NCBI GenBank assembly: GCA_004321885.1
Contig: SCQK01000016.1
Span: 1 to 26,422, forward strand
From: Patescibacteria group bacterium
GTDB lineage: Bacteria; Patescibacteriota; Patescibacteriia; Magasanikbacterales; GWA2-37-8
Length of the DNA: 26,422 nucleotides
Direction: 5' to 3'
The notes beneath the pieces are model-generated. The model made no database searches and was not told the origin of the DNA. It saw only the letters and a program-made list of their open reading frames with translations. Below, in pieces: positions 6,009-17,135 of the stretch (its first letter is position 1; every line of letters starts with the position of its first letter). Position numbers and translations under genes: made by a program.

Positions 6009-9000
6009 TTATTTATTTTTTTCTTGAGTACTTTCCGCGAGTTCCTGCCTTTGCTTTTCCTCAAACGCCCGCACCTCTTCCACGGGCCGGTAATCGCCAG
6101 ACTCGCTGCGCTTCAGAAGTTCCACATCCAAACCCAGGCCTTTCAGTTCGCGCACCAAAACATTAAACGACTCGGGCAGATTCACGCGGCTGATGGGCTC
6201 GCCCTTAATAATGGCCTCGTAGGCCTTGGAACGGCCGGGCACATCATCGGATTTGATGGTCAAAATTTCCTGCAGGGTATGGGCCGCGCCATAGGCTTCC
6301 AAGGCCCACACTTCCATTTCGCCAAAGCGCTGGCCGCCGAACTGGGCTTTGCCGCCCAGGGGCTGCTGGGTAATCAAACTGTACGGCCCGATGGAGCGCT
6401 GATGGATTTTATCCTCCACCATGTGATTGAGTTTCAGCATATAGCTGTAGCCCACGGTAACTTTGTGGTCAAAGGCCTCGCCGGTGCGGCCGTCATAAAG
6501 AGCAACCTGTCCGCTGGCCGGCAGTCCGGCTTTGGCCAGCTCTTCTTTTATCTGTTCCTCGGAGAGGCCGCTTAGAACCGGCGTCGCTATTTTGTAGCCC
6601 AGGGCATTGGCCGCCAATCCCAAATGATTTTCCAAAAGCTGGCCCAGGTTCATGCGCGAGATAACGCCGAGCGGGGAAAGAATCACGTCAACCGAGGTGC
6701 CGTCTTCCAAAAACGGCATGTCTTCCGCCGGCACCACGCGCGAGATAACGCCCTTGTTGCCGTGGCGTCCGGCCATCTTGTCGCCCACCTGCACCTTGCG
6801 CATGTCAGCCACTTTCACCTGCACCTGCTTTATCACGCCAGGCTGCAATTTATCGCCGTTTTCCGCCGAGAAAATTTTAATGCCGATAACCTTGCCGTGC
6901 TCGCCGTGTTCCAAATACAAAGATGAATCGCGCACATCGCGGGCTTTTTCCCCAAAAATAGCGCGTAAGAGCCGCTCTTCGGCCGAAAGCTCGGTCTCGC
7001 CCTTGGGCGTGATTTTGCCGACCAGTATGTCGCCGGATTTTACCTCGGCGCCCACGCGCACAATGCCCTCGCTGTCCAAATTTTTCAATTTTTCCTCGCT
7101 GACATTGGGAATGTCCGAGGTGACGATTTCCGGGCCCAGCTTGGTCTCGCGCACGTCTATCACATAGTCTTCTATATGAATGGAAGTAAATCTGTCTTCT
7201 TCCACCACGCGCTCGGAAACAATGATGGCGTCTTCGTAGTTGAAGCCGTCCCACACCATATACGCTACCAGCATGTTTTGCCCGAGCGAAAGTTCGCCCT
7301 GGTTGATGCCCGGGCCGTCGGTTATGGCCTGGCCCTTCTTTACCTTGTCTCCCAAATTTACAGTCGGCATCTGATTCACGCAGGTGGAGGCGTTGCTACG
7401 CACGAACTTATTTAAAAAGTGAGTGTGCTTATTGCCTTTTTTGTCGGTGAGCACCACGTGTTTGCCGTCCATTTCCGTAATCTCGCCGTCGGCTTCGGCA
7501 ATCCTCATGTGCCCGCTGTCGTAGGCCGCGCGCGCTTCCACGCCCGTGCCCACCAGGGGCTGTTCGGGTTTGATGCAGGGCACGGCCTGTCTTTGCATGT
7601 TCGTGCCCATCAGGGCGCGGGTGGCATCGTCGTGCTCCAAAAAAGGAATGCAGGCCGTGGCAATGGAAATAATCTGACTGGAAGAAACATCTACATAATC
7701 AACCTCGCTGGTATGGGCAATGCCCGGATTGCCGTGAATGCGGGCCGGGGTCATTTCTTCCGTAAAATATCCGTCCGCGTCCAATTTTACTTTGGCAGAG
7801 GCGGTAATGGCTTTTTCTTCCCGGAAAGCATTAAGATAAACCACTTCGCTGGTCACGCGCGCTTTAAGCGGAACCTTCTTTTCTTTGCTTTTGGCCAGTT
7901 TGCGCGCGATGTCCTCGGTAATTTTTGTGCCGGCTTTTACGCCGCCAAAATCAGCGCCTAAAATTTCCCCCTCGGTGAAGCGCGGGTCGTTTTCCACTTC
8001 GCGCAAAACCTTGCGGTAGGGTGTTTCAATAAAACCAAAGTCATTGACGCGCGCGAAGCTGGAAAGATGATTTACCAGACCGATGTTCGGTCCTTCGGGA
8101 GTGGCAATAGGGCAGATGCGGCCATAGTGGGTGGCGTGCACGTCGCGCACCTCAAAGCCGGCGCGGTCGCGCGAAAGTCCGCCCGGGCCCAGGGCCGACA
8201 CGCGGCGCTTGTGTTCCAATTCGGAGAGCGGATTGGTCTGGTCCATGAACTGCGAAAGCTGGGAACTCATGAAAAATTCGCGGATGGCCGATATCACGGG
8301 CCGCGCGTTGATAAGCTTGTTGGGTGTGAGCTGGTCAAGCTCTTGGGTGCTCATGCGGTCTTTGATAATGCGCTCCATGCGGGTAAGGCCCACGCGGAAA
8401 CGATTTTGCGCCAGCTCGCCCACGGCCCGGATGCGTCGGTTGCCCAGATGGTCAATATCATCAGGCTCTTCCTGGGTCACGTTCAGGCGCACCACTTCTT
8501 TCAAAACCAAGAGTAGCTTTTCCGGCGACAGCACGCGGTTTTCTTTTTTGTCAAAATCATCGGGCCCATAGCCCAAATCAAATTTGGTATTGAATTTGTA
8601 AACACCCACGCGCCCCAAATCATAACGGTCAAAATTGAAAAACATGGCGTAAATCAAACTCTTGGCATTATCGGCCGTGGCCAGGTCGCCCGGCCTGATT
8701 CTTTTATATACCTCAATCAAGCCTTCATCCGCGTTGGCGGCCAAATCCTTTTTTATGGTCGCGTCAACATAATCCACGCTCGGATGATTGTTCACATCTT
8801 TGAAAGCGCTGACCAGTTCCTCGCTCGCGCCCATGCCAAAAGCGCGCAGGAGCGAGGTGGCGGCCACTTTGCGCTTGCGGTCCACTTTTACCCAGACTGC
8901 GTTGTTCATATCGGTTTCAATTTCAATCCAGGCCCCGCGGTTTGGTATGATTTTAGCGCCATAATAGCGGCGGCCGCGGATGTTCTCGGCCGTGAAAAAA

Positions 9001-9434
9001 GCGCCGGCGCTTCTGATGAGTTGGGAAACCACCACGCGCTCAATGCCGTTGACTATAAAAGTGCCGCGCCGGGTCATAAGGGGTACATCGCCCAAATAGA
9101 TTTCCTGGGTTTTGCCGGCGCCGGTGCGCTTGTTGGCCAGGCGCGTGGTTACGCGCAGGGGCGCTTCAAAAGTAATATTGCGTTCGCGGCAGGTTACCTC
9201 ATCAAACTTGGGTTCATCCAGATAATAGTCGTCAAAATACAATTCCAAATCACGGCCCGTGAAGTCCGTAATCGGTGAGAGCTCATCAAACAATTCTTTA
9301 ATGCCGAATTTCAAAAACCAATCATAAGAATTTTTTTGCACCTCTATCAGGTCGGGCAGGGGCATGGCGTCGCGCGTGCGCGTAAAAAAACGGCGCTCCA
9401 ATGTTTTTAGCTGTTGTCGCTTGTAGAGGGACAT
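6009..9434 (-). CDS. rpoB: DNA-directed RNA polymerase subunit beta
   Basis: 1141 aa; conserved beta-subunit blocks (e.g. GGQRFGEMEVWALEAYGAAHTLQE, NMQRQAVP); immediately upstream of rpoC. Confidence 0.96.
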   Translation of the reverse strand: MSLYKRQQLKTLERRFFTRTRDAMPLPDLIEVQKNSYDWFLKFGIKELFDELSPITDFTGRDLELYFDDYYLDEPKFDEVTCRERNITFEAPLRVTTRLANKRTGAGKTQEIYLGDVPLMTRRGTFIVNGIERVVVSQLIRSAGAFFTAENIRGRRYYGAKIIPNRGAWIEIETDMNNAVWVKVDRKRKVAATSLLRAFGMGASEELVSAFKDVNNHPSVDYVDATIKKDLAANADEGLIEVYKRIRPGDLATADNAKSLIYAMFFNFDRYDLGRVGVYKFNTKFDLGYGPDDFDKKENRVLSPEKLLLVLKEVVRLNVTQEEPDDIDHLGNRRIRAVGELAQNRFRVGLTRMERIIKDRMSTQELDQLTPNKLINARPVISAIREFFMSSQLSQFMDQTNPLSELEHKRRVSALGPGGLSRDRAGFEVRDVHATHYGRICPIATPEGPNIGLVNHLSSFARVNDFGFIETPYRKVLREVENDPRFTEGEILGADFGGVKAGTKITEDIARKLAKSKEKKVPLKARVTSEVVYLNAFREEKAITASAKVKLDADGYFTEEMTPARIHGNPGIAHTSEVDYVDVSSSQIISIATACIPFLEHDDATRALMGTNMQRQAVPCIKPEQPLVGTGVEARAAYDSGHMRIAEADGEITEMDGKHVVLTDKKGNKHTHFLNKFVRSNASTCVNQMPTVNLGDKVKKGQAITDGPGINQGELSLGQNMLVAYMVWDGFNYEDAIIVSERVVEEDRFTSIHIEDYVIDVRETKLGPEIVTSDIPNVSEEKLKNLDSEGIVRVGAEVKSGDILVGKITPKGETELSAEERLLRAIFGEKARDVRDSSLYLEHGEHGKVIGIKIFSAENGDKLQPGVIKQVQVKVADMRKVQVGDKMAGRHGNKGVISRVVPAEDMPFLEDGTSVDVILSPLGVISRMNLGQLLENHLGLAANALGYKIATPVLSGLSEEQIKEELAKAGLPASGQVALYDGRTGEAFDHKVTVGYSYMLKLNHMVEDKIHQRSIGPYSLITQQPLGGKAQFGGQRFGEMEVWALEAYGAAHTLQEILTIKSDDVPGRSKAYEAIIKGEPISRVNLPESFNVLVRELKGLGLDVELLKRSESGDYRPVEEVRAFEEKQRQELAESTQEKNK

Positions 9435-9630
9435 ACAAAAACAATGCCTTTTTAGGGGCTGATAGTTAAAAAGATTATGCTACTCGCGCAGGGTCTGCAT
9501 GAAAATTGGCACCGCGTATAGCCCGCGTGGGGCGATACCGCAGTATTTTTGGCTTGTTACAGCCAAGAAACGACTTCCGCAACGCCCATTCGGCGAGCGG
9601 CAGTCAAACAGCGAAGATTGAAGTACCAAA

Positions 9631-9659
9631 ATGATACCTTATATTATAATATTTGTCAA
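9631..9659 (-). promoter_or_regulatory. candidate rpoB promoter with about 190-nt leader
   Basis: minus strand TTGACA - 17 nt - TATCAT; leader (9435-9625) contains several hairpins including TTGGCT-N6-AGCCAA motifs. Confidence 0.35.
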
Positions 9660-9783
9660 ATGTGAGAACGGTTTATTAAATTTGTCAAGGGGTGCGCGTT
9701 ACTCGGCTAATTTTAGCCAAAAAACTCCACTGAACCAAAACATTTCCAAAAAGTTATCCACAGGTTATCCGCACCTATATTTT

Positions 9784-10443
9784 TTAAATTTCCACTTCTG
9801 TTTCCGCACCTTCCCGGGCTTTCAATAAATCTTTGGGGGTAATGTGTTGAAAATTCCGCTCCGCGTCTTTGGCTGATTTTTTCAATTCTGTAGAGTATTC
9901 CTTGCTTCTGTCCGCGTGTTCTCCTTTACCAGCGGTCGGTTTTTTGCTCCCAACTGTCTTGCCTCCCTTTTTCCCACCTTCAATATCCATGTTTGGTATT
10001 TTATAAACAGGGAGGATTTCCACTGCCCCGTTGCTTCCATTAACAAATGCCACATCCATCCCTTGCTCAAGCAACAACTTTCTGATTCCTCTAATTTGAG
10101 CGGCGATTTGGTCTGGAGACAACTGCCTGCTCTCCGCGTCTTTTAACGTTTCACTCCAAGCTGTTCGCGTTTCCCTAATGCCTTTCTTAGCTCCCCTGTC
10201 ATAACCGGCATCATAAACCGCTTTCAGCTTCGCCTGTCCGGTTTTTTTCTCTAAATTCACTCCCACAAGTTCGCCGCCGGTAAAGGTAGTGGCGGCAAGA
10301 AGACCTGTCACAATGCCCTTTTTAACTTTACCGCTTTTTTTGTCCCCCCTTGATTCCGGATTAAATCCGCCGTTTTCTCGCCTCATAAAAAATAGATAAA
10401 AAATAATTGCTTGTATTGTATCAAATACGCTTGAAAAAAACAA
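9784..10443 (-). CDS. hypothetical protein, hydrophobic N-terminus then Lys/Gly-rich
   Basis: 219-aa ORF from TTG at 10443 (alternative ATG at 10386); no SD; N-terminal MFFSSVFDTIQAIIFYLFF looks like a membrane anchor; no recognisable domain. Confidence 0.45.
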   Translation of the reverse strand: MFFSSVFDTIQAIIFYLFFMRRENGGFNPESRGDKKSGKVKKGIVTGLLAATTFTGGELVGVNLEKKTGQAKLKAVYDAGYDRGAKKGIRETRTAWSETLKDAESRQLSPDQIAAQIRGIRKLLLEQGMDVAFVNGSNGAVEILPVYKIPNMDIEGGKKGGKTVGSKKPTAGKGEHADRSKEYSTELKKSAKDAERNFQHITPKDLLKAREGAETEVEI

Positions 10444-10639
10444 ACGGGTGCGATGGGTTGCTTAAACAACTATTCGGCTGTAAAATACTGACGTATTTTA
10501 AATAAAATTCTATGCCTCGAGAAACAGGCGGCTACGCACCGCCGGAAGCGCAAGCGATAACAAGCGGTAAAAAAATCAACAGTTTTTCCGCAAGCAAGCC
10601 AGAGACCGCGCCGAAGATTTTGTTGAAAGCGGCGGCTTA

Positions 10640-11122
10640 TTGGAAAAAATAAAAAGGGGAGACGCGGTTGCCTATATCGGCACTGGTTCCGGACACGTTC
10701 CGCAATTTATTGAGGAACAAACCGGAGCGAAGATATTTAAATTTGACCTGGCAAATTTGCGGACGCCTGATACAAAGGACAATAAATTCGCGCTGGCCAA
10801 TGCCCGCCATTTGCCGCTGGCCGATTCGTCGTTGGACGTGGTTTGCTTGTTTGATGTGTTGCACCACACGAAAAATCAAGAGCAAATTTTGAGTGAAGCG
10901 CGTCGGGTACTTCGGCCCGGTGGAAAATTATTACTGCTCGAAGATACTTTGCCCGAAGAAATCAACATCGCGAGCGGAGTTAAAAAAACTAAAGCGAAAG
11001 CTAAAAAATGGTTGGTAGGAAAAATGGATGATTTGTTTAATCTGCAATCAAAAAGCGTGAACCCGCATAATTTTATCATGCGATTTCTGACTGGGAAATT
11101 ATGCTTCACGAAGCTGGCTTGA
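10640..11122 (+). CDS. class I SAM-dependent methyltransferase (Methyltransf_11-like), apparently N-terminally short
   Basis: motif I VAYIGTGSGH at residues 9-18. The later block LPLADSSLDVVCLFDVLHH...RVLRPGGKLLLLE is typical of UbiE/type-11 MTases. Only a TTG start is available and nothing precedes motif I. Confidence 0.65.
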   Translation: MEKIKRGDAVAYIGTGSGHVPQFIEEQTGAKIFKFDLANLRTPDTKDNKFALANARHLPLADSSLDVVCLFDVLHHTKNQEQILSEARRVLRPGGKLLLLEDTLPEEINIASGVKKTKAKAKKWLVGKMDDLFNLQSKSVNPHNFIMRFLTGKLCFTKLA

Positions 11123-11269
11123 CTGTAAACGCGCGAGACACAAAAAGTTGGCAGTGGGGTATCAAAGATTTTATTTCCAAAGATAAAAAAGGGGCAAGGG
11201 CTAAACGGCCAAACAAACCGACAATGGGTTCGCCATTTCAAGCTACTCTTTTTGAAGGAATCAAACCTC

Positions 11270-11312
11270 TTGAAACAAAAAACATCCCGACTAAGTCGGG
11301 ATGTTTTATTAT
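11270..11312. terminator. bidirectional intrinsic terminator hairpin
   Basis: A-run, stem aacatcccg/cgggatgtt with loop actaagt, T-run. Confidence 0.4.
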
Positions 11313-11395
11313 TGAAGTTTCCTCGGCCTCCGCAGGCGTAAACAATTTTACGACTACGGAGGGTGGCCGAAGAACTACAGGCCGAGAAAGTGGCG

Positions 11396-11563
11396 CTACC
11401 AGACGCACCACCAGGGGCGCTTGAGCGGCAGGCTGGACGGCCGACCGCCAAGACAGATGTTCAGAACATACAACGCCCTGAACGCGAGGGGCAGGAAAAA
11501 CAACGCGAGGGCGGCCAGCGCTAGAAGCGCCAGCACGCCAAAAACCACAAAGAGCATTATCAT
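11396..11563 (-). CDS. possible small hydrophobic membrane peptide (55 aa)
   Basis: ATG at 11563; MIMLFVVFGVLALLALAALALFFLPLAFRALYVLNI...; preceded by TTGACA - 17 nt - TCTAAT on the minus strand; could be spurious. Confidence 0.2.
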   Translation of the reverse strand: MIMLFVVFGVLALLALAALALFFLPLAFRALYVLNICLGGRPSSLPLKRPWWCVW

Positions 11564-11607
11564 GCCTCAATTAGACCACAAAATCGCCCTTTTGTCAAGC
11601 CCTGTCC

Positions 11608-11636
11608 TTGACAAATTATTGTGTATAGTGTATAAT
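11608..11636 (+). promoter_or_regulatory. consensus sigma70 promoter of the wHTH-GHKL gene
   Basis: TTGACA(11608-13) - 17 nt - TATAAT(11631-36); ATG at 11657 gives a very short leader without SD. Confidence 0.7.
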
Positions 11637-11654
11637 ATATATACATTATACACT
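11627..11654 (+). promoter_or_regulatory. perfect 10-bp inverted repeat (operator-like) overlapping the -10 and the start of transcription
   Basis: AGTGTATAAT-atatatac-ATTATACACT, ending 2 nt before the ATG. Confidence 0.55.
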
Positions 11655-11656
11655 AT

Positions 11657-12424
11657 ATGAAAACGGCTACACAAAGCCAAATTCTAAATTACATACGCTC
11701 AAAAAAAGGTGCGGGGGCGCGTGAGATAATAAAACAAACCGGCAAGTACCCCACCGGTATTTTTCGCCATCTCAAAAATTTGCTGGCGGCAAACAAAATT
11801 TATAAGATTGGCAATATGCCCAGAGCGAGGTATTATGCCTTTGTTGAAAATACTAATATGACAAGCGAAAATCTTGCCAAGGCCATAAATTGGGCCGCGA
11901 CAGGTGATAGTAATTTAGTTACGCCCGATATTTTGTGCCAAACCCGCGATGTTTTCCAGGCGCGCGCGGATCATCTCGCCAAAGATTTAAAGCGAATAAT
12001 CAAAGACGATGACCTGATTTATCTTTTGATAGCCGCCGCTGATGAAATTGGAAACAATTCTTTTGATCATAATATTGGCCGCTGGCAGGATGTCCCCGGC
12101 GTGTTTTTTCAAATGAAAGAAGGTGAACGCGAAATGATTTTTGCCGACCGCGGACAAGGCGTGTTGGCCACCATCAGCGGAGTCAGACCTGATATTAAAG
12201 GTTCTGCCGACGCTTTGCGGGTAGCATTCACCGAGATTATTTCCGGCCGCGCGCCCGAGAAAAGAGGCAACGGACTTAAACTTGTGAAAAAAATAATCGT
12301 GGAAAATAATTTGTATCTAGAATTTTATAGCGGCAACGCCAAGGCAGTAATAGAAACGCCGGATTTAAGGATAGAAAAATCTGAAATAAACATAACAGGA
12401 ACTGTCGTGTATCTTAAATTTTAA
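11657..12424 (+). CDS. winged-helix DNA-binding domain fused to GHKL (HATPase_c) ATPase, RsbW/SpoIIAB-like
   Basis: N-terminal wHTH-like segment (QILNYIRSKKGAGAREIIKQTG...IFRHLKNLLAANKIYKIG); C-terminal N-box AADEIGNNSFDHN, G1 box ADRGQG, G2 box GNGLKLV. Confidence 0.75.
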   Translation: MKTATQSQILNYIRSKKGAGAREIIKQTGKYPTGIFRHLKNLLAANKIYKIGNMPRARYYAFVENTNMTSENLAKAINWAATGDSNLVTPDILCQTRDVFQARADHLAKDLKRIIKDDDLIYLLIAAADEIGNNSFDHNIGRWQDVPGVFFQMKEGEREMIFADRGQGVLATISGVRPDIKGSADALRVAFTEIISGRAPEKRGNGLKLVKKIIVENNLYLEFYSGNAKAVIETPDLRIEKSEINITGTVVYLKF

Positions 12425-12455
12425 CTGAATTCCCGGTCGCTTGAGGCGACTGTGA

Positions 12456-12743
12456 ATGACAACTTGTATGAAATTAGAGCTAAAAAAATTCGGCACAATG
12501 CTATCCTCGCGGCCAGCCGGTAAAGAAGCCTACCTTGGCGCTAAAGCATACACCCTGCCGAAAGAACCCAATGAAAAAATTGACGTGGATTTTTCTGGCG
12601 TGCAGGTACTCACCCCTTCCTGGGCCGATGAATTTATCACCCCGCTTTTGCGTGATTACCCCGGGCGGGTGATTTTGCTGCCCTCGGACAATGCCACGGT
12701 AAAAGCGGCGCTGGAGATTATCGGGGTGATAAAAGAAAAATAA
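12456..12743 (+). CDS. DUF4325 (STAS-like) domain protein
   Basis: 95 aa; KFGTMLSSRPAGKE...IDVDFSGVQVLTPSWADEFITPLL matches the DUF4325 STAS-like pattern (DFsGVe..ssSFaDElf); SD GAGG 10 nt upstream; 31 nt after the GHKL gene. Confidence 0.65.
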   Translation: MTTCMKLELKKFGTMLSSRPAGKEAYLGAKAYTLPKEPNEKIDVDFSGVQVLTPSWADEFITPLLRDYPGRVILLPSDNATVKAALEIIGVIKEK

Positions 12744-12753
12744 TTATCAACAC

Positions 12754-12781
12754 TTGACACTGTTTTGGTTTAAGCTACAAT
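12754..12781 (+). promoter_or_regulatory. near-consensus sigma70 promoter with no CDS downstream
   Basis: TTGACA - 16 nt - TACAAT. Confidence 0.55.
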
Positions 12782-12788
12782 AAAGTAT

Positions 12789-13010
12789 CGGATAATTTTT
12801 CTTCAATAACTTTCTCTGCACCGAGCTGCGCAAGAGTCGATGTCTTGACCGGATCGGATTTTTTGGAAACAATCTCTCTCCTCTCCTGAACTTACTTTTT
12901 AGTATGTTCGGAGAGCGTTTTCAAAATTCGGTTCGTAAGCTAAAACATGCGCCTCTTGCCGCAGCTCGGTGCAGAGAAAAAAAACAGCGCGCCGTTGGCG
13001 CGCCTTTTTT
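12789..13010 (+). ncRNA. candidate structured small RNA (unknown family; 6S-like closing stem)
   Basis: promoter at 12754-81, a 23/24-bp long-range stem (12814-12836 pairs with 12953-12976) enclosing about 115 nt with internal hairpins, then a rho-independent terminator; no ORF with SD in the interval. Confidence 0.3.
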
Positions 13011-13014
13011 GTTT
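12977..13014. terminator. bidirectional intrinsic terminator
   Basis: aaaaaaaaca - GCGCGCC gtt GGCGCGC - cttttttgttt. Confidence 0.65.
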
Positions 13015-13032
13015 ATGATATAATTATGAAAT

Positions 13033-15336
13033 ATGCCCCGACCTCGCATATACAGGCGAACGCACAAACCTCGCTTTAGTTTGAATCTCAATCCCGACAT
13101 CAGCCGCGGGCTGATTTCCATTTTCCTCTTTATCGTGGGCGGGGTATCGGCGCTGGCCTTTTTCCACCTGGCCGGCGTGGCCGGCGAATTCATAGATTCG
13201 CTTCTCGCCATTTCTTTCGGCCAGGTGCGCTATGTTTTTCCCATCATTCTCATCTTGGTCGGCATCCTCACCCTCAAAGATTTGCGTTACGAATACCGGC
13301 CCACGCACTGGCTGGGCTCCCTGCTTTTCTTTTTAAGCTTCAACGCCCTGGTGCATCTGCAAACACCTGTTTTGGAAATGAAAGACACTGCCCTGCAAGG
13401 CTATGGCGGCGGGCTGGTCGGGTTGGCGCTGGCCTGGCCCCTCGCGACCTATGTGGGCTATTGGGGCGGATTGGTTATTTTAATCGGTCTTGTGCTGGCC
13501 TCGGTAATTTTCCTGTTCAACACCTCGCTGGCGCGCATCGTGGGCCTGCATCGTCAATTTTTTTTCGTGCTGGGCTGGTTTGGCCGGCAGGTCATCGCTT
13601 TTTTCGCCCTTTTCAAAAGACCGGCCAGGGTAAAATTTAAAATCAACGGCGAATACGAAGAACAAAACGAGGAAGAAGCAGAAGACGAAACACAACCAGA
13701 CCCGGAAGATGAAAAAAGGATATTCAAACAGCGCGTCATTGCCAAGCAAGAAGAAAACGAGGTCATCTCGGCTGAAAAAGAAAAAACTGAAGAAAAAATG
13801 GAAGTGACTAGGCCCAAGCCGGTTATTCGCGATTTGCCGCCTCTGAACTTATTATATATTTCCAAAAGCAAACCCACTTCGGGCGACATAAAAAGCAACG
13901 CTGAGGTTATCCGCGACACTTTATTCAATTTCGGCATGGAAGTTGAGATGGGCGAGGTGCGCGTGGGTCCGACTGTTACGCAATATTCCCTTAAACCGGC
14001 CAAAGGCATCAAGCTGAATCGCATTACCGCCTTGAGTAATGACTTGGCTTTGGCTTTAGCCGCCCACCCCATTCGCATTGAGGCCCCTATCCCGGGCAAA
14101 TCACTGGTGGGCATTGAAGTGCCAAATCAAAAAGTGGCTATGGTTACTTTGCGCGAACTGCTGGAAAGCCAGGAATACAAAGCCAGCGATAACCCCATGA
14201 AAATCGCCTTAGGCAAAGACGTGGCCGGCAAGGTCTGGTTCGGCGACTTGCCCAAAATGCCCCACTTGCTCATTGCTGGCGCCACGGGCTCAGGCAAAAC
14301 TGTGTGCATCAACACCATTTTGCTTTCTTTACTTTACCAAAACACGGCCGAAACCCTGCGCCTTATAATGGTAGACCCGAAACGGGTGGAGCTCACCATG
14401 TACAACGGCATTCCGCACCTGCTCACGCCGGTAATCACCGACGCGGCTAAAACCGTAAACGCCTTAAAGTGGACCATCGGCGAAATGGACCGGCGCTTTA
14501 CGCTTTTATCCGAGAGCGGAAATCGCGATATCAATTCCTACAATCGCACGGCCGATGAGCCTTTGCCTCACATTATCTTTGCCATAGACGAGCTGGCCGA
14601 CCTGATGGCCATGGCCGCCAGCGACGTGGAAGCCGGCATCATCCGCATCGCCCAGATGGCGCGCGCCGTGGGCATCCACTTGCTGGTGGCCACCCAGCGC
14701 CCGAGCGTGGAAGTCATCACCGGCCTGATGAAAGCCAATATTCCGGCGCGCATAGCGTTTTCAGTGGCAAGCCTCATTGACTCGCGCACCATCCTTGACT
14801 GCCCGGGCGCGGAAAAATTGCTCGGCCGCGGCGACATGCTGTTTTTAACCGCCGAACTCACCAAGCCCAAACGTTTGCAGGGCGCCTTTGTGTCCGAAGA
14901 AGAAATGAAACGGGTGATAGACCACTTAAAAGGCGACGAGCCGCCGGTTTACGACGACTCCATTGTTTCCAAAAACGCCGAAGTTAAATTCGGAAGCACG
15001 GTAAACATGTTCGGCGGTCCGGGCGACGATGTTGACCCGCTTTTTGAAGACGCCAAAAAAATCGTGCTTGATTCGGGCAAAGCCAGCGCCTCGCTTTTGC
15101 AAAGATTTTTGAAACTGGGCTATGCCCGCGCCGCGCGCCTGCTTGACCAATTGGAAGAAGCTGGTATAGTAGGGCCGGCCGACGGCGCCAAACCGCGCGA
15201 GGTCTTTGGGGAATATTTTTCGGCCGAAAGCGAACTGCCTGAACCAATTGAGAAACCGGAACCGGACAAAGAACTGCCGGCCGAAGAACAAACCATGGAC
15301 GCGGGCGGGACCGTGTTTGACGAAGAAACAAAATAA
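13033..15336 (+). CDS. ftsK: DNA translocase FtsK/SpoIIIE
   Basis: 767 aa; N-terminal TM helices, Walker A GATGSGKT, VATQRPSVEVITG, C-terminal gamma wHTH (SASLLQRFLKLGYARAARLLDQLEEAGIVGP). Confidence 0.95.
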   Translation: MPRPRIYRRTHKPRFSLNLNPDISRGLISIFLFIVGGVSALAFFHLAGVAGEFIDSLLAISFGQVRYVFPIILILVGILTLKDLRYEYRPTHWLGSLLFFLSFNALVHLQTPVLEMKDTALQGYGGGLVGLALAWPLATYVGYWGGLVILIGLVLASVIFLFNTSLARIVGLHRQFFFVLGWFGRQVIAFFALFKRPARVKFKINGEYEEQNEEEAEDETQPDPEDEKRIFKQRVIAKQEENEVISAEKEKTEEKMEVTRPKPVIRDLPPLNLLYISKSKPTSGDIKSNAEVIRDTLFNFGMEVEMGEVRVGPTVTQYSLKPAKGIKLNRITALSNDLALALAAHPIRIEAPIPGKSLVGIEVPNQKVAMVTLRELLESQEYKASDNPMKIALGKDVAGKVWFGDLPKMPHLLIAGATGSGKTVCINTILLSLLYQNTAETLRLIMVDPKRVELTMYNGIPHLLTPVITDAAKTVNALKWTIGEMDRRFTLLSESGNRDINSYNRTADEPLPHIIFAIDELADLMAMAASDVEAGIIRIAQMARAVGIHLLVATQRPSVEVITGLMKANIPARIAFSVASLIDSRTILDCPGAEKLLGRGDMLFLTAELTKPKRLQGAFVSEEEMKRVIDHLKGDEPPVYDDSIVSKNAEVKFGSTVNMFGGPGDDVDPLFEDAKKIVLDSGKASASLLQRFLKLGYARAARLLDQLEEAGIVGPADGAKPREVFGEYFSAESELPEPIEKPEPDKELPAEEQTMDAGGTVFDEETK

Positions 15337-16082: not shown

Positions 16083-17135
16083 ATGGCAAAGGTATCCGAG
16101 GAGGTAAAGGAGAAACTGAAAGCGGCCGAAAGCGCCATTGAACAAATCAAGACCAAGTTCGGCGACGGCGCTATCATGAAATTCGGCGAGGCTCATACCA
16201 TGCAGGTGGACGCTGTGCCGACCGGTTGTCTGTCTCTTGATATCGCGCTGGGGGTCAAGGGGGTGCCGCGCGGCCGGGTGATAGAAATCTACGGCCCCGA
16301 GGCCTCGGGTAAAACCACTCTGGCCCAGCATATTGTGGCCGAGGTGCAAAAACTGGGCGGCATTGCCGCGTTCGTGGACGCCGAACACGCCCTGGACCCT
16401 GATTACGCGCGCAAAATCGGGGTGAAAGTGGATGAACTTTTAATTTCCCAGCCCGATACCGGCGAACAGGCGCTGGATATTGTGGAAACTCTGGTGCGCA
16501 GTAACGCCGTGGACATCATCGTGATTGACTCGGTGGCCGCGCTGGTGCCCAAGGCCGAAATAGAAGGCGAGATGGGTGATTCACACATGGGTCTGCAAGC
16601 GCGCCTGATGAGCCAAGCCCTGCGCAAACTCACCGGCATTATCAGCAAATCCAAAACCGTGGTAATTTTTATCAACCAGACGCGCATGAAAATCGGCGTG
16701 TACTTTGGCAATCCGGAAACCACCACCGGCGGCATGGCCTTAAAATTTTATTCGTCCGTTCGCATTGAAGTGCGCCGCGCCGCGCAAATCAAACAGGCCG
16801 AGAGAATCATCGGCAACCGCGTCAAAGTGAAAGTGGTGAAAAACAAGGTGGCCCCGCCCTTCCGCACCTGCGAATTTGATATCATGTACAACGAGGGCAT
16901 CTCGCTCTCGGGCGATTTGCTGGACAACGGCGTGCTCTACAAGGTGGTAAATAAATCCGGCAATACCTACGAATTCGGCGAGGAAAAGCTGGGCGTGGGA
17001 CGCGAAGCCGCCAAAAAATACCTGAAAGACACCCCAAAACTAACGGAAAAAATCCGCCAGGCAATCTGGGAAGCGGTGGAAAAAGGCGAAGCCCCCGAAG
17101 AGGAAGAGGCTGTCCCGCCTCCGGCCGAAGAATAA
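16083..17135 (+). CDS. recA: recombinase RecA
   Basis: 350 aa; [11 protein letters not shown] Walker [20 protein letters not shown], acidic C-terminal tail. Confidence 0.97.

Follow-up and report, generated by a model that had tools for sequence, protein, structure and literature searches.

A predicted DNA-binding GHKL protein and its STAS partner in Patescibacteria: a relative of the CapK/CapS and VapK/VapS pairs with a predicted operator over its own promoter

CapK, a protein of 362 aa composed of a helix-turn-helix, a STAS domain and a GHKL domain, is switched on by single-stranded DNA (ssDNA) and phosphorylates Ser54 of CapS, which joins a STAS domain to a winged helix-turn-helix (Chambers et al., EMBO J 2026, PMC13373217). 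CapS represses its own promoter; upon phosphorylation the repressor dimer dissociates, and capS and the downstream immune operon are derepressed (PMC13373217). In VapKSC, a demonstrated toxin-antitoxin and defence system, VapK (STAS-GHKL) is likewise activated by ssDNA and has been proposed to phosphorylate Ser48 of VapS, which frees the PIN toxin VapC (PMC13373217). The VapK-VapS proposal rests on an AlphaFold 3 model and on the mutants S48E and S48A; VapK was insoluble and its phosphorylation of VapS was not seen directly (PMC13373217). Here we describe a gene pair, A and B, from a Patescibacteria group bacterium (assembly GCA_004321885.1, contig SCQK01000016.1). The window, i.e. the whole stretch of DNA that was analysed, comprises 26,422 nucleotides. 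Gene A (11657-12424, plus strand) codes for a protein of 255 aa that is annotated as hypothetical at NCBI (EPN28_04780) and that we describe as a putative DNA-binding, CapK/VapK-like GHKL kinase. Gene B (12456-12743, plus strand) codes for a single STAS domain of the DUF4325 family, for which a full-text literature search found no functional study.

Scans of A against Pfam, NCBIfam and PADLOC returned neither a GHKL nor a defence family; therefore a fold search was needed. The AlphaFold2 model of A, based on 36 homologues, had a pLDDT (predicted local distance difference test) of 89.7 and a pTM (predicted template modelling score) of 0.83. It consisted of a winged helix (residues 1-62), two conserved helices (residues 63-116) and an alpha/beta sandwich. 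The N-terminus was matched by Pfam HTH_24 at residues 5-48, below threshold (E 6.5e-4, 19.7 bits versus a cut-off of 21.9). The helical linker of residues 63-116 (11843-12004, plus strand) with W79 and the motif TRDVFQAR is common to all three architectures of A described below. Residues 117-255 (12005-12421, plus strand) form the SpoIIAB-type GHKL (Bergerat) ATP-binding domain with an N box E130-x3-N134-x3-H138 (12044-12070), a G1 box D164-x-G-x-G168 (12146-12160) and a G2 box R203-G-N-G-L-K208 (12263-12280), all on the plus strand. The boxes were invariant in the 36 homologues and again in a set of 35. Thus the loss of ATP-lid residues, which a sequence-only reading of the window had named as speaking against its proposal, does not occur, and its description of A, a winged helix joined to a GHKL domain of the SpoIIAB/RsbW type in which the N, G1 and G2 boxes are intact, is borne out by invariance and fold. 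A Z-alpha (Z-DNA-binding) winged helix in A was rejected, as a phmmer alignment to the Z-alpha domain of PKZ placed F36 and K40 at the positions of the conserved helix-3 Asn and Tyr, respectively.

The first ATG of gene B at 12456 would yield 95 aa. Because the homologues have 86-93 aa and open with MK/RxELKKFG, corresponding to MKLELKK in B, translation probably starts at 12468, giving 91 aa. B matched Pfam DUF4325 (PF14213) with 28.7 bits, above the gathering cut-off of 23, and PF14213 is the precomputed annotation of nearly all of 120 listed B homologues. The STAS fold, which had been predicted for B from its sequence, was confirmed. Like its homologues, B is a STAS domain only and carries no output module. 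About 20 surface and core positions in 88 residues are invariant, and the motif VL(T/S/A)PSWADEF is nearly so. The predicted phospho-acceptor, Ser51 when counted from 12468 and Ser55 when counted from 12456 (codon 12618-12620, plus strand), was invariant in 34 sequences and is located in the first turn of helix 2 (residues 50-63). It thus sits at the helix-2 start position where SpoIIAA and CapS are phosphorylated on Ser58 and Ser54, respectively (PMC13373217).

The pair was compared with the CapK, CapS, VapK and VapS sequences taken from the appendix of PMC13373217. The phage-protein profile phrog_3364 matched VapK (4.9e-33), CapK (1.3e-11), A (4e-11) and a MerR-type A (2.2e-9). In hhalign A and VapK aligned over 130 columns with an E of 1.8e-4 and all three boxes in register: EIYANSFEH, VDFGVGI and RGLGLHLLKE of VapK faced EIGNNSFDH, ADRGQGV and RGNGLKLVKK of A. 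A direct comparison of A and CapK aligned only the helix-turn-helix. On the substrate side VapS is a DUF4325 protein (E 2.7e-17, Pfam) like B, while CapS had no Pfam DUF4325 match. Sequence searches of the PDB with A, B and a B profile gave nothing useful and did not recover the CapS and VapS entries.

With CapK/CapS the pair shares a gene for a SpoIIAB-like GHKL kinase with the conserved N-box Asn (N218 in CapK), followed immediately by that of a STAS protein, an N-terminal helix-turn-helix on the kinase, a conserved Ser in helix 2 of the STAS protein and palindromic sites at its own promoter. In CapKS these include a 'wide' palindrome; in A-B they point to autorepression. Yet the STAS domain of CapK forms the ssDNA-sensing groove, whereas A has no STAS domain: only about 55 residues, the two helices of the linker, separate its winged helix from the GHKL domain, and the phrog_3364 match, which includes this linker, begins at profile position 87. 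Moreover, the repressor of CapKS is the STAS protein CapS, while in A-B it is the kinase that carries the DNA-binding domain, and B consists of a STAS domain alone. CapKS is found upstream of immune operons (CBASS, Bub, Thoeris), whereas A-B has no conserved downstream operon. The resemblance to VapK/VapS/VapC lies in the GHKL domain of VapK, the best phrog_3364 match, and in the DUF4325 assignment of VapS and B. VapK, however, starts with a STAS sensor and lacks a DNA-binding domain, the C-terminal tail by which VapS inhibits the PIN toxin VapC is missing from B, and the three genes of VapKSC contrast with two in A-B, where no PIN or other toxin gene was found across 84 loci. Judged by profile and motif comparisons, A-B belongs to the same kinase-substrate superfamily as CapKS and VapKSC. 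We class it as a new architectural variant and not as a member of either system, because the kinase is without the sensor STAS domain, the STAS protein without an output domain and the pair without an effector operon behind it. Two earlier reports look like unrecognised sightings of VapKSC-type loci, namely a PIN.4 group of VapC 'transcriptionally coupled to DUF4325 genes' (PMC5499597) and a gene pair of a Francisella prophage encoding 293 aa and a 112-aa DUF4325 protein (PMC7924643).

The sequence-only reading had called A and B a classic partner-switching pair with no sigma factor nearby. The SpoIIAB-type GHKL domain and the STAS domain agree with the first part of this view. In contrast to SpoIIAB/SpoIIAA and RsbW/RsbV, however, no sigma factor or PP2C gene is present among the window genes, and no sigma factor gene was found in the 84 related loci either; a sigma target encoded elsewhere is possible. 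A further differs from SpoIIAB and RsbW by carrying a DNA-binding domain of its own, and the Pfam models HATPase_c_2 and STAS miss A and B.

The best GHKL matches of A in Foldseek were the N-domains of Hsp90/TRAP1, and the GHKL superfamily includes many non-kinase ATPases. Both points would suit a reading of A as an ATP-dependent DNA-binding ATPase or clamp in the style of MutL, MORC or Hsp90, with B as a regulator of its nucleotide state. On the other hand, the GHKL domain of A has the minimal size of SpoIIAB without a transducer domain, A shares its profile family with CapK, for which kinase activity was demonstrated, and its obligate STAS partner has a conserved Ser at the phosphosite position. 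We therefore consider a non-kinase ATPase highly improbable.

Upstream of gene A a consensus promoter overlapping a perfect 10-bp inverted repeat with an N8 spacer had been noted. The sigma-70-type promoter (TTGACA at 11608-11613, a 17-nt spacer, TATAAT at 11631-11636, plus strand) agrees with the consensus at 12/12 positions. The ATG of gene A follows 20 nt past the -10 hexamer, which leaves a leader of only about 12-14 nt and no Shine-Dalgarno sequence. The palindrome AGTGTATAAT-N8-ATTATACACT was confirmed and is the core of a longer repeat, the perfect arms of which are in fact 13 nt long: TATAGTGTATAAT at 11624-11636 and its exact reverse complement at 11645-11657, separated by 8 nt. The final base of the palindrome is the A of the ATG. 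The centres of the half-sites are 21 bp, i.e. two helical turns, apart, and degenerate copies of the half-site are found at 11617-11629 (2 mismatches) and 11638-11650 (3 mismatches). Perfect inverted repeats with arms of at least 13 nt occurred in only 3/200 dinucleotide shuffles of the window, those with arms of at least 10 nt in only 9/5000 shuffles of the local AT-rich 120 nt. The predicted operator (11617-11657), which comprises the inverted repeat plus the degenerate copies, covers the -10 hexamer and the presumed transcription start and reaches the first nucleotide of the ATG; this placement is the geometry of a repressor roadblock. TATAGT/ACTATA arrays are present at the same position in related winged-helix loci. 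A second perfect inverted repeat with 9-nt arms, TTTGTCAAG-N7-CTTGACAAA, at 11591-11615 contains the -35 hexamer in its right arm and is a candidate for an upstream insulating hairpin or a second binding site. A local regulon was rejected, since no further copy of the 13-mer was found near any other gene of the window, including ftsK and recA.

The relatives of A fall into three architectures. The first, a winged helix plus core, is the minority type and is represented by the window, close Magasanik-like relatives and Elusimicrobia. The majority combines a MerR-type helix-turn-helix with the core; all 34 of the 34 proteins tested matched Pfam MerR/MerR_1. The third is the core alone with 190-206 aa, and here B still follows (L021, L025, L069 and many representatives of about 190 aa). 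The motifs upstream of A change with the domain. Winged-helix loci have arrays of TATAGT then ACTATA between a TTGACA -35 hexamer and the ATG, whereas MerR loci have two to four direct copies of TTGCATAGATTT or TGTATAGATTT, which are phased direct repeats and not a palindrome, as exemplified by the upstream region of L083, cTTGCATAGATTTGCATAGATTTGGTATAATTTGCATAGATTTGctcatATG. The density of TATAGT upstream of A was 36 times that in the rest of the loci and 15 times that in other intergenic DNA. For the MerR-type motif [GT][CT]ATAG[AG]T[TA] the corresponding factors were 46 and 28, and 91/97 of its copies were direct with spacings of 10, 20-21 or 30 nt. Each motif was absent or near background in the other group. 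Other clusters of three or more motifs were not found within 4 kb on either side of the pair in the 84 loci. An exact scan of metagenomes with the 20-mer TTGCATAGATTTGCATAGAT yielded 95 stretches. In 58 of the 81 that were read an A gene followed 35-70 nt downstream; 4 ran into the contig end and 5 were derivatives with a deletion of A.

Taken together this is strong comparative evidence that the N-terminal domain of A binds the promoter of its own operon. Because the own-promoter motif is conserved across relatives and switches with the DNA-binding domain, we argue for autorepression, and the direct autoregulation proposed from the window alone gains the support of its relatives. The DNA-binding domain looks like an exchangeable autoregulatory add-on, with the kinase core and the STAS protein as the conserved functional unit. 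As this domain can be exchanged and is missing from some relatives, the best reading of DNA binding is that the module limits itself.

Motif copies away from A were seen in two settings. In L136, L141 and L158, which are GC-rich contigs unlike those of Patescibacteria, TTGCATAGATTTGCATAGAT precedes a radical-SAM gene (about 390 aa) by 80-163 nt; these copies could represent a MerR-family site with no relation to A or a tandem repeat that arose by chance. In the marine metagenome contig L098 an iteron-like array at 84-572 repeats the 10-nt unit AAATCTATAC 49 times in tandem; read on the opposite strand, this unit is the MerR-type operator unit GTATAGATTT. The array adjoins a 183-nt repeat of 3.9 copies and has no A gene nearby.

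When one genome of each GTDB species was scanned, relatives turned up in at least 584. Among the matches listed most were from Patescibacteria (Magasanik-, Roizman-, Gottesman- and Moraniibacteria, Saccharibacteria and others), a few from Elusimicrobia and one from Prolixibacteraceae. An exhaustive search with a hidden Markov model gave 1101 clusters at 50% identity with E <=1e-3, 307 of them with E <=1e-10. The neighbourhood survey that had been suggested for DUF4325-GHKL pairs showed strict pairing: a B homologue directly followed A on the same strand in 84/84 loci, and A preceded B in 45/45 further complete metagenomic loci. The stop codon of A and the start codon of B overlapped by 4 nt in 15/78 pairs and the gap was 12 nt or less in 60/78, which implies coupled translation of A and B. 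The mean pairwise identity was 0.48-0.62 for B and 0.50-0.59 for the GHKL core; thus both diverge at the same rate, whereas the DNA-binding domain and the linker of A diverge faster than the core. The statement that B is far more conserved than A was dropped, because it is true only in comparison with full-length A. In L001 a 104-nt direct repeat (1220-1323 and 2794-2897, 98% identical) that contains a terminator-like palindrome brackets a unit of 1574 bp, made up of A, B and some 420 nt preceding them, an indication that the module was inserted or duplicated as a cassette.

On balance, and with some reserve, we favor the view that A and B work in the manner of CapK/VapK and CapS/VapS, as kinase and substrate or as partner-switching proteins, and that the pair represses the operon encoding it. 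A would dimerize via its SpoIIAB-like GHKL core, such that the two winged helices occupy the two 13-bp half-sites on one face of the DNA and block RNA polymerase at the -10 hexamer and the transcription start. B, translated from the same message in step with A, would dock on the ATP-lid face of the GHKL domain. On some cue A would phosphorylate the invariant Ser at the start of helix 2 of B, and the partner choice of each protein would change. The kinase-STAS pair is best read as carrying the real function of the module. STAS-controlled release of a DNA-bound ATPase, which had been put forward from the sequence, is unlikely as the core function, because the DNA-binding domain is optional and the bare cores of 190-206 aa still pair with B.

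Several results weigh against the kinase-substrate reading. Pfam found no HATPase family in A at E<1 and NCBIfam did not recognise the domain, so that the GHKL call is without profile confirmation. The boxes of A line up with those of SpoIIAB, but the sequence alignment was not significant (E 0.17), and a direct sequence link between A and SpoIIAB was rejected on this ground. Ser51 of B aligned with S54 of CapS and was one residue off S48 of VapS, both in profile alignments of low probability. Since A has no N-terminal STAS sensor, the activating cue is not transferable from CapK or VapK. Clustering of six genes on each side in the 84 loci revealed no third conserved gene, and a B without an output domain and without a conserved effector or target nearby would leave a purely self-referential loop with no obvious function. 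Finally, versions of A without a DNA-binding domain exist, therefore repression by A is not the essential activity. The proposed link of the pair to stress or invader sensing is strengthened by the homology to CapK/VapK and CapS/VapS. No defence effector accompanies the pair, and PADLOC found no defence match for A.

Parts of the locus resemble HipBA, i.e. the two-gene operon, an operator covering its promoter, a genomic context that varies, coupled translation, a tolerated orphan of the small partner and, as predicted here, autoregulation. Along these lines the pair could be a toxin-antitoxin-like addiction or abortive-infection module, where the kinase core of A is harmful by phosphorylating host proteins and B serves as decoy substrate and inhibitor. 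The DNA-binding domain would then supply conditional autorepression as in type II systems, following HipA/HipB logic with the domain on the kinase. This differs from HipBA, in which the kinase HipA has another fold, of the eukaryotic-like, PI3/4 type, and the small protein binds DNA. Losses of A without losses of B fit the toxin-antitoxin reading. In four metagenome contigs (L093, L117, L150, L161) the promoter and operator are followed by a full-length B; A is gone from them apart from its last ~15 codons, which L150 and L161 retain. The fifth case, L116, has a B truncated by fusion of the operator to its middle. An intact A without B was not found, each A lacking B being cut by a contig end. 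The self-contained operon in varied neighbourhoods, two copies of the module in one metagenome-assembled genome (MAG; L051, L057), the direct repeat flanking it in L001, AbiEii, MNT, HEPN and Fic genes near the pair in some loci and the sister system VapKSC point in the same direction. Yet A and B have no toxin-type domain, and no GHKL Ser kinase is known as a toxin. B is as conserved as the kinase core, whereas antitoxins usually diverge fast. PADLOC gave no matches, and the five loci with B only are all from metagenome assemblies. Phage and plasmid collections are practically devoid of the module: tblastn did not detect it there, and the single IMG/VR match has an A next to a serine integrase where a prophage fragment ends, so that it may be host DNA. 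Thus we regard a toxin-antitoxin module as rather unlikely.

The activation of CapK and VapK by ssDNA and the neighbours of the pair in some loci raise another explanation, namely a regulator of DNA damage or recombination that senses a lesion signal and derepresses its operon together with co-transcribed repair genes (rmuC, recA, others) where these are located downstream of B. An RmuC gene follows B after 1-20 nt in five loci (L006, L010, L011, L017, L019). A block of ftsK, a RodZ-like HTH_25 gene and recA adjoins the pair in three arrangements (the window; L002, 3130-8907; L009), in which the pair is upstream of the block, interrupts it behind ftsK or converges with recA. L002 shows the order A-B-HTH_25-recA with a gap of 17 nt, and in L059 recA is three genes away. 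PD-(D/E)XK nuclease, RadC and GIY-YIG genes are further neighbours in some loci. Most loci, however, have unrelated housekeeping neighbours, e.g. tRNA synthetase, TatC or hemerythrin, and the five RmuC loci are close relatives and maybe reflect one evolutionary event. In the window a promoter, a 170-nt hairpin and a terminator lie between B and ftsK and neither ftsK nor recA has an operator copy nearby. In addition, A has no counterpart of the STAS domain from which CapK builds its ssDNA groove. A regulator of DNA damage or recombination is thus decidedly unlikely in our opinion.

In a further alternative the output would be B itself. In its unphosphorylated form it would bind and control a conserved protein whose gene lies elsewhere in the genome, comparable to MlaB-MlaF or to SypA in Vibrio, and A would set only the phosphorylation and the amount of B. 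The roughly 20 invariant positions of B, the B-only loci with an intact promoter and the retention of B by versions of A without a DNA-binding domain fit such a role. The conservation of B, however, equals that of the kinase core and is explicable by the A-B interface alone, and no candidate partner co-occurs in the neighbourhood. Sigma factor, PP2C and PIN genes were absent among the 25 most frequent of 157 Pfam families in 144 immediate neighbours. We consider this role of B very doubtful; it and the non-kinase ATPase are possible and less supported readings.

We give a small but appreciable chance to another reading, in which the core of about 190 aa and the bare STAS protein constitute a free-standing signalling or conflict module of Patescibacteria and some Elusimicrobia with an effector that is not encoded alongside. 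Either the kinase would act on host proteins, as a novel type of kinase toxin that a STAS decoy restrains, or the pair would be a DNA-damage switch independent of LexA, driving recA or rmuC in some lineages, and a winged helix or MerR-type domain would have been recruited independently at least twice, only for self-limitation.

On the favored kinase-substrate reading the pair is a widespread and so far undescribed system without an attached effector gene, related to CapK/CapS and VapK/VapS, the DNA-damage switches known from phage defence; in databases it is annotated only as 'hypothetical' or 'DUF4325'. The pair of kinase and STAS protein appears to be a portable core that has been connected to various inputs and outputs: the kinase may carry a STAS sensor, a winged helix or a MerR domain or none of these, and the substrate a winged helix-turn-helix, a toxin-binding tail or neither. 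The link to CapK/CapS and VapK/VapS/VapC leads to a concrete, testable proposal, i.e. that the SpoIIAB-like kinase phosphorylates the Ser of the STAS protein, and the co-varying operators are defined DNA probes. Patescibacteria are tiny, mostly uncultured episymbionts, the gene regulation of which is nearly unexplored. Cultured members of the Saccharibacteria exist. Some MAGs among the MerR-type relatives bear the label Candidatus Saccharibacteria, so that tests of the module in a live representative of the phylum may be feasible.

The gene order of the window is yebC, rpoC, rpoB (6009-9434, minus strand), a 219-aa gene without assigned function (minus strand), an S-adenosylmethionine (SAM) methyltransferase gene (10640-11122), A, B, ftsK (13033-15336, plus strand), the RodZ-like HTH_25 gene, recA (16083-17135), mgtC and three tRNAs. 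Thus the pair is located between rpoB and ftsK as described before, in a GC-poorer stretch with 0.43-0.47 at 9000-13000 versus 0.50-0.57 in the flanks. The highest GC, 0.60-0.65, was found at 500-2100, where long overlapping open reading frames (ORFs) on both strands (e.g. 948-1628 minus, 952-2022 plus) had no Pfam match.

Divergent from gene A an ORF for 55 strongly hydrophobic aa is present at 11396-11563 on the minus strand, followed by a hairpin with a 13-bp stem at 11279-11307. A conserved small membrane peptide at this position was rejected, and the ORF may be spurious or lineage-specific, because it is absent upstream of A in other loci.

The interval between B and ftsK contains a promoter-like sequence TTGACA-16-TACAAT at 12754-12781, a very long hairpin with perfect 20-nt arms at 12811-12830 and 12960-12979 and, 3' of it and ahead of ftsK, a terminator-like hairpin at 12987-13003. 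The RNA fold of 12788-13012 had an energy of -103.6 kcal/mol with z = -10.8. The long hairpin had no Rfam match and no second copy within the window; the region 12754-13013 could be a MITE-like (miniature inverted-repeat transposable element) inverted repeat, a structured RNA or an insulator.

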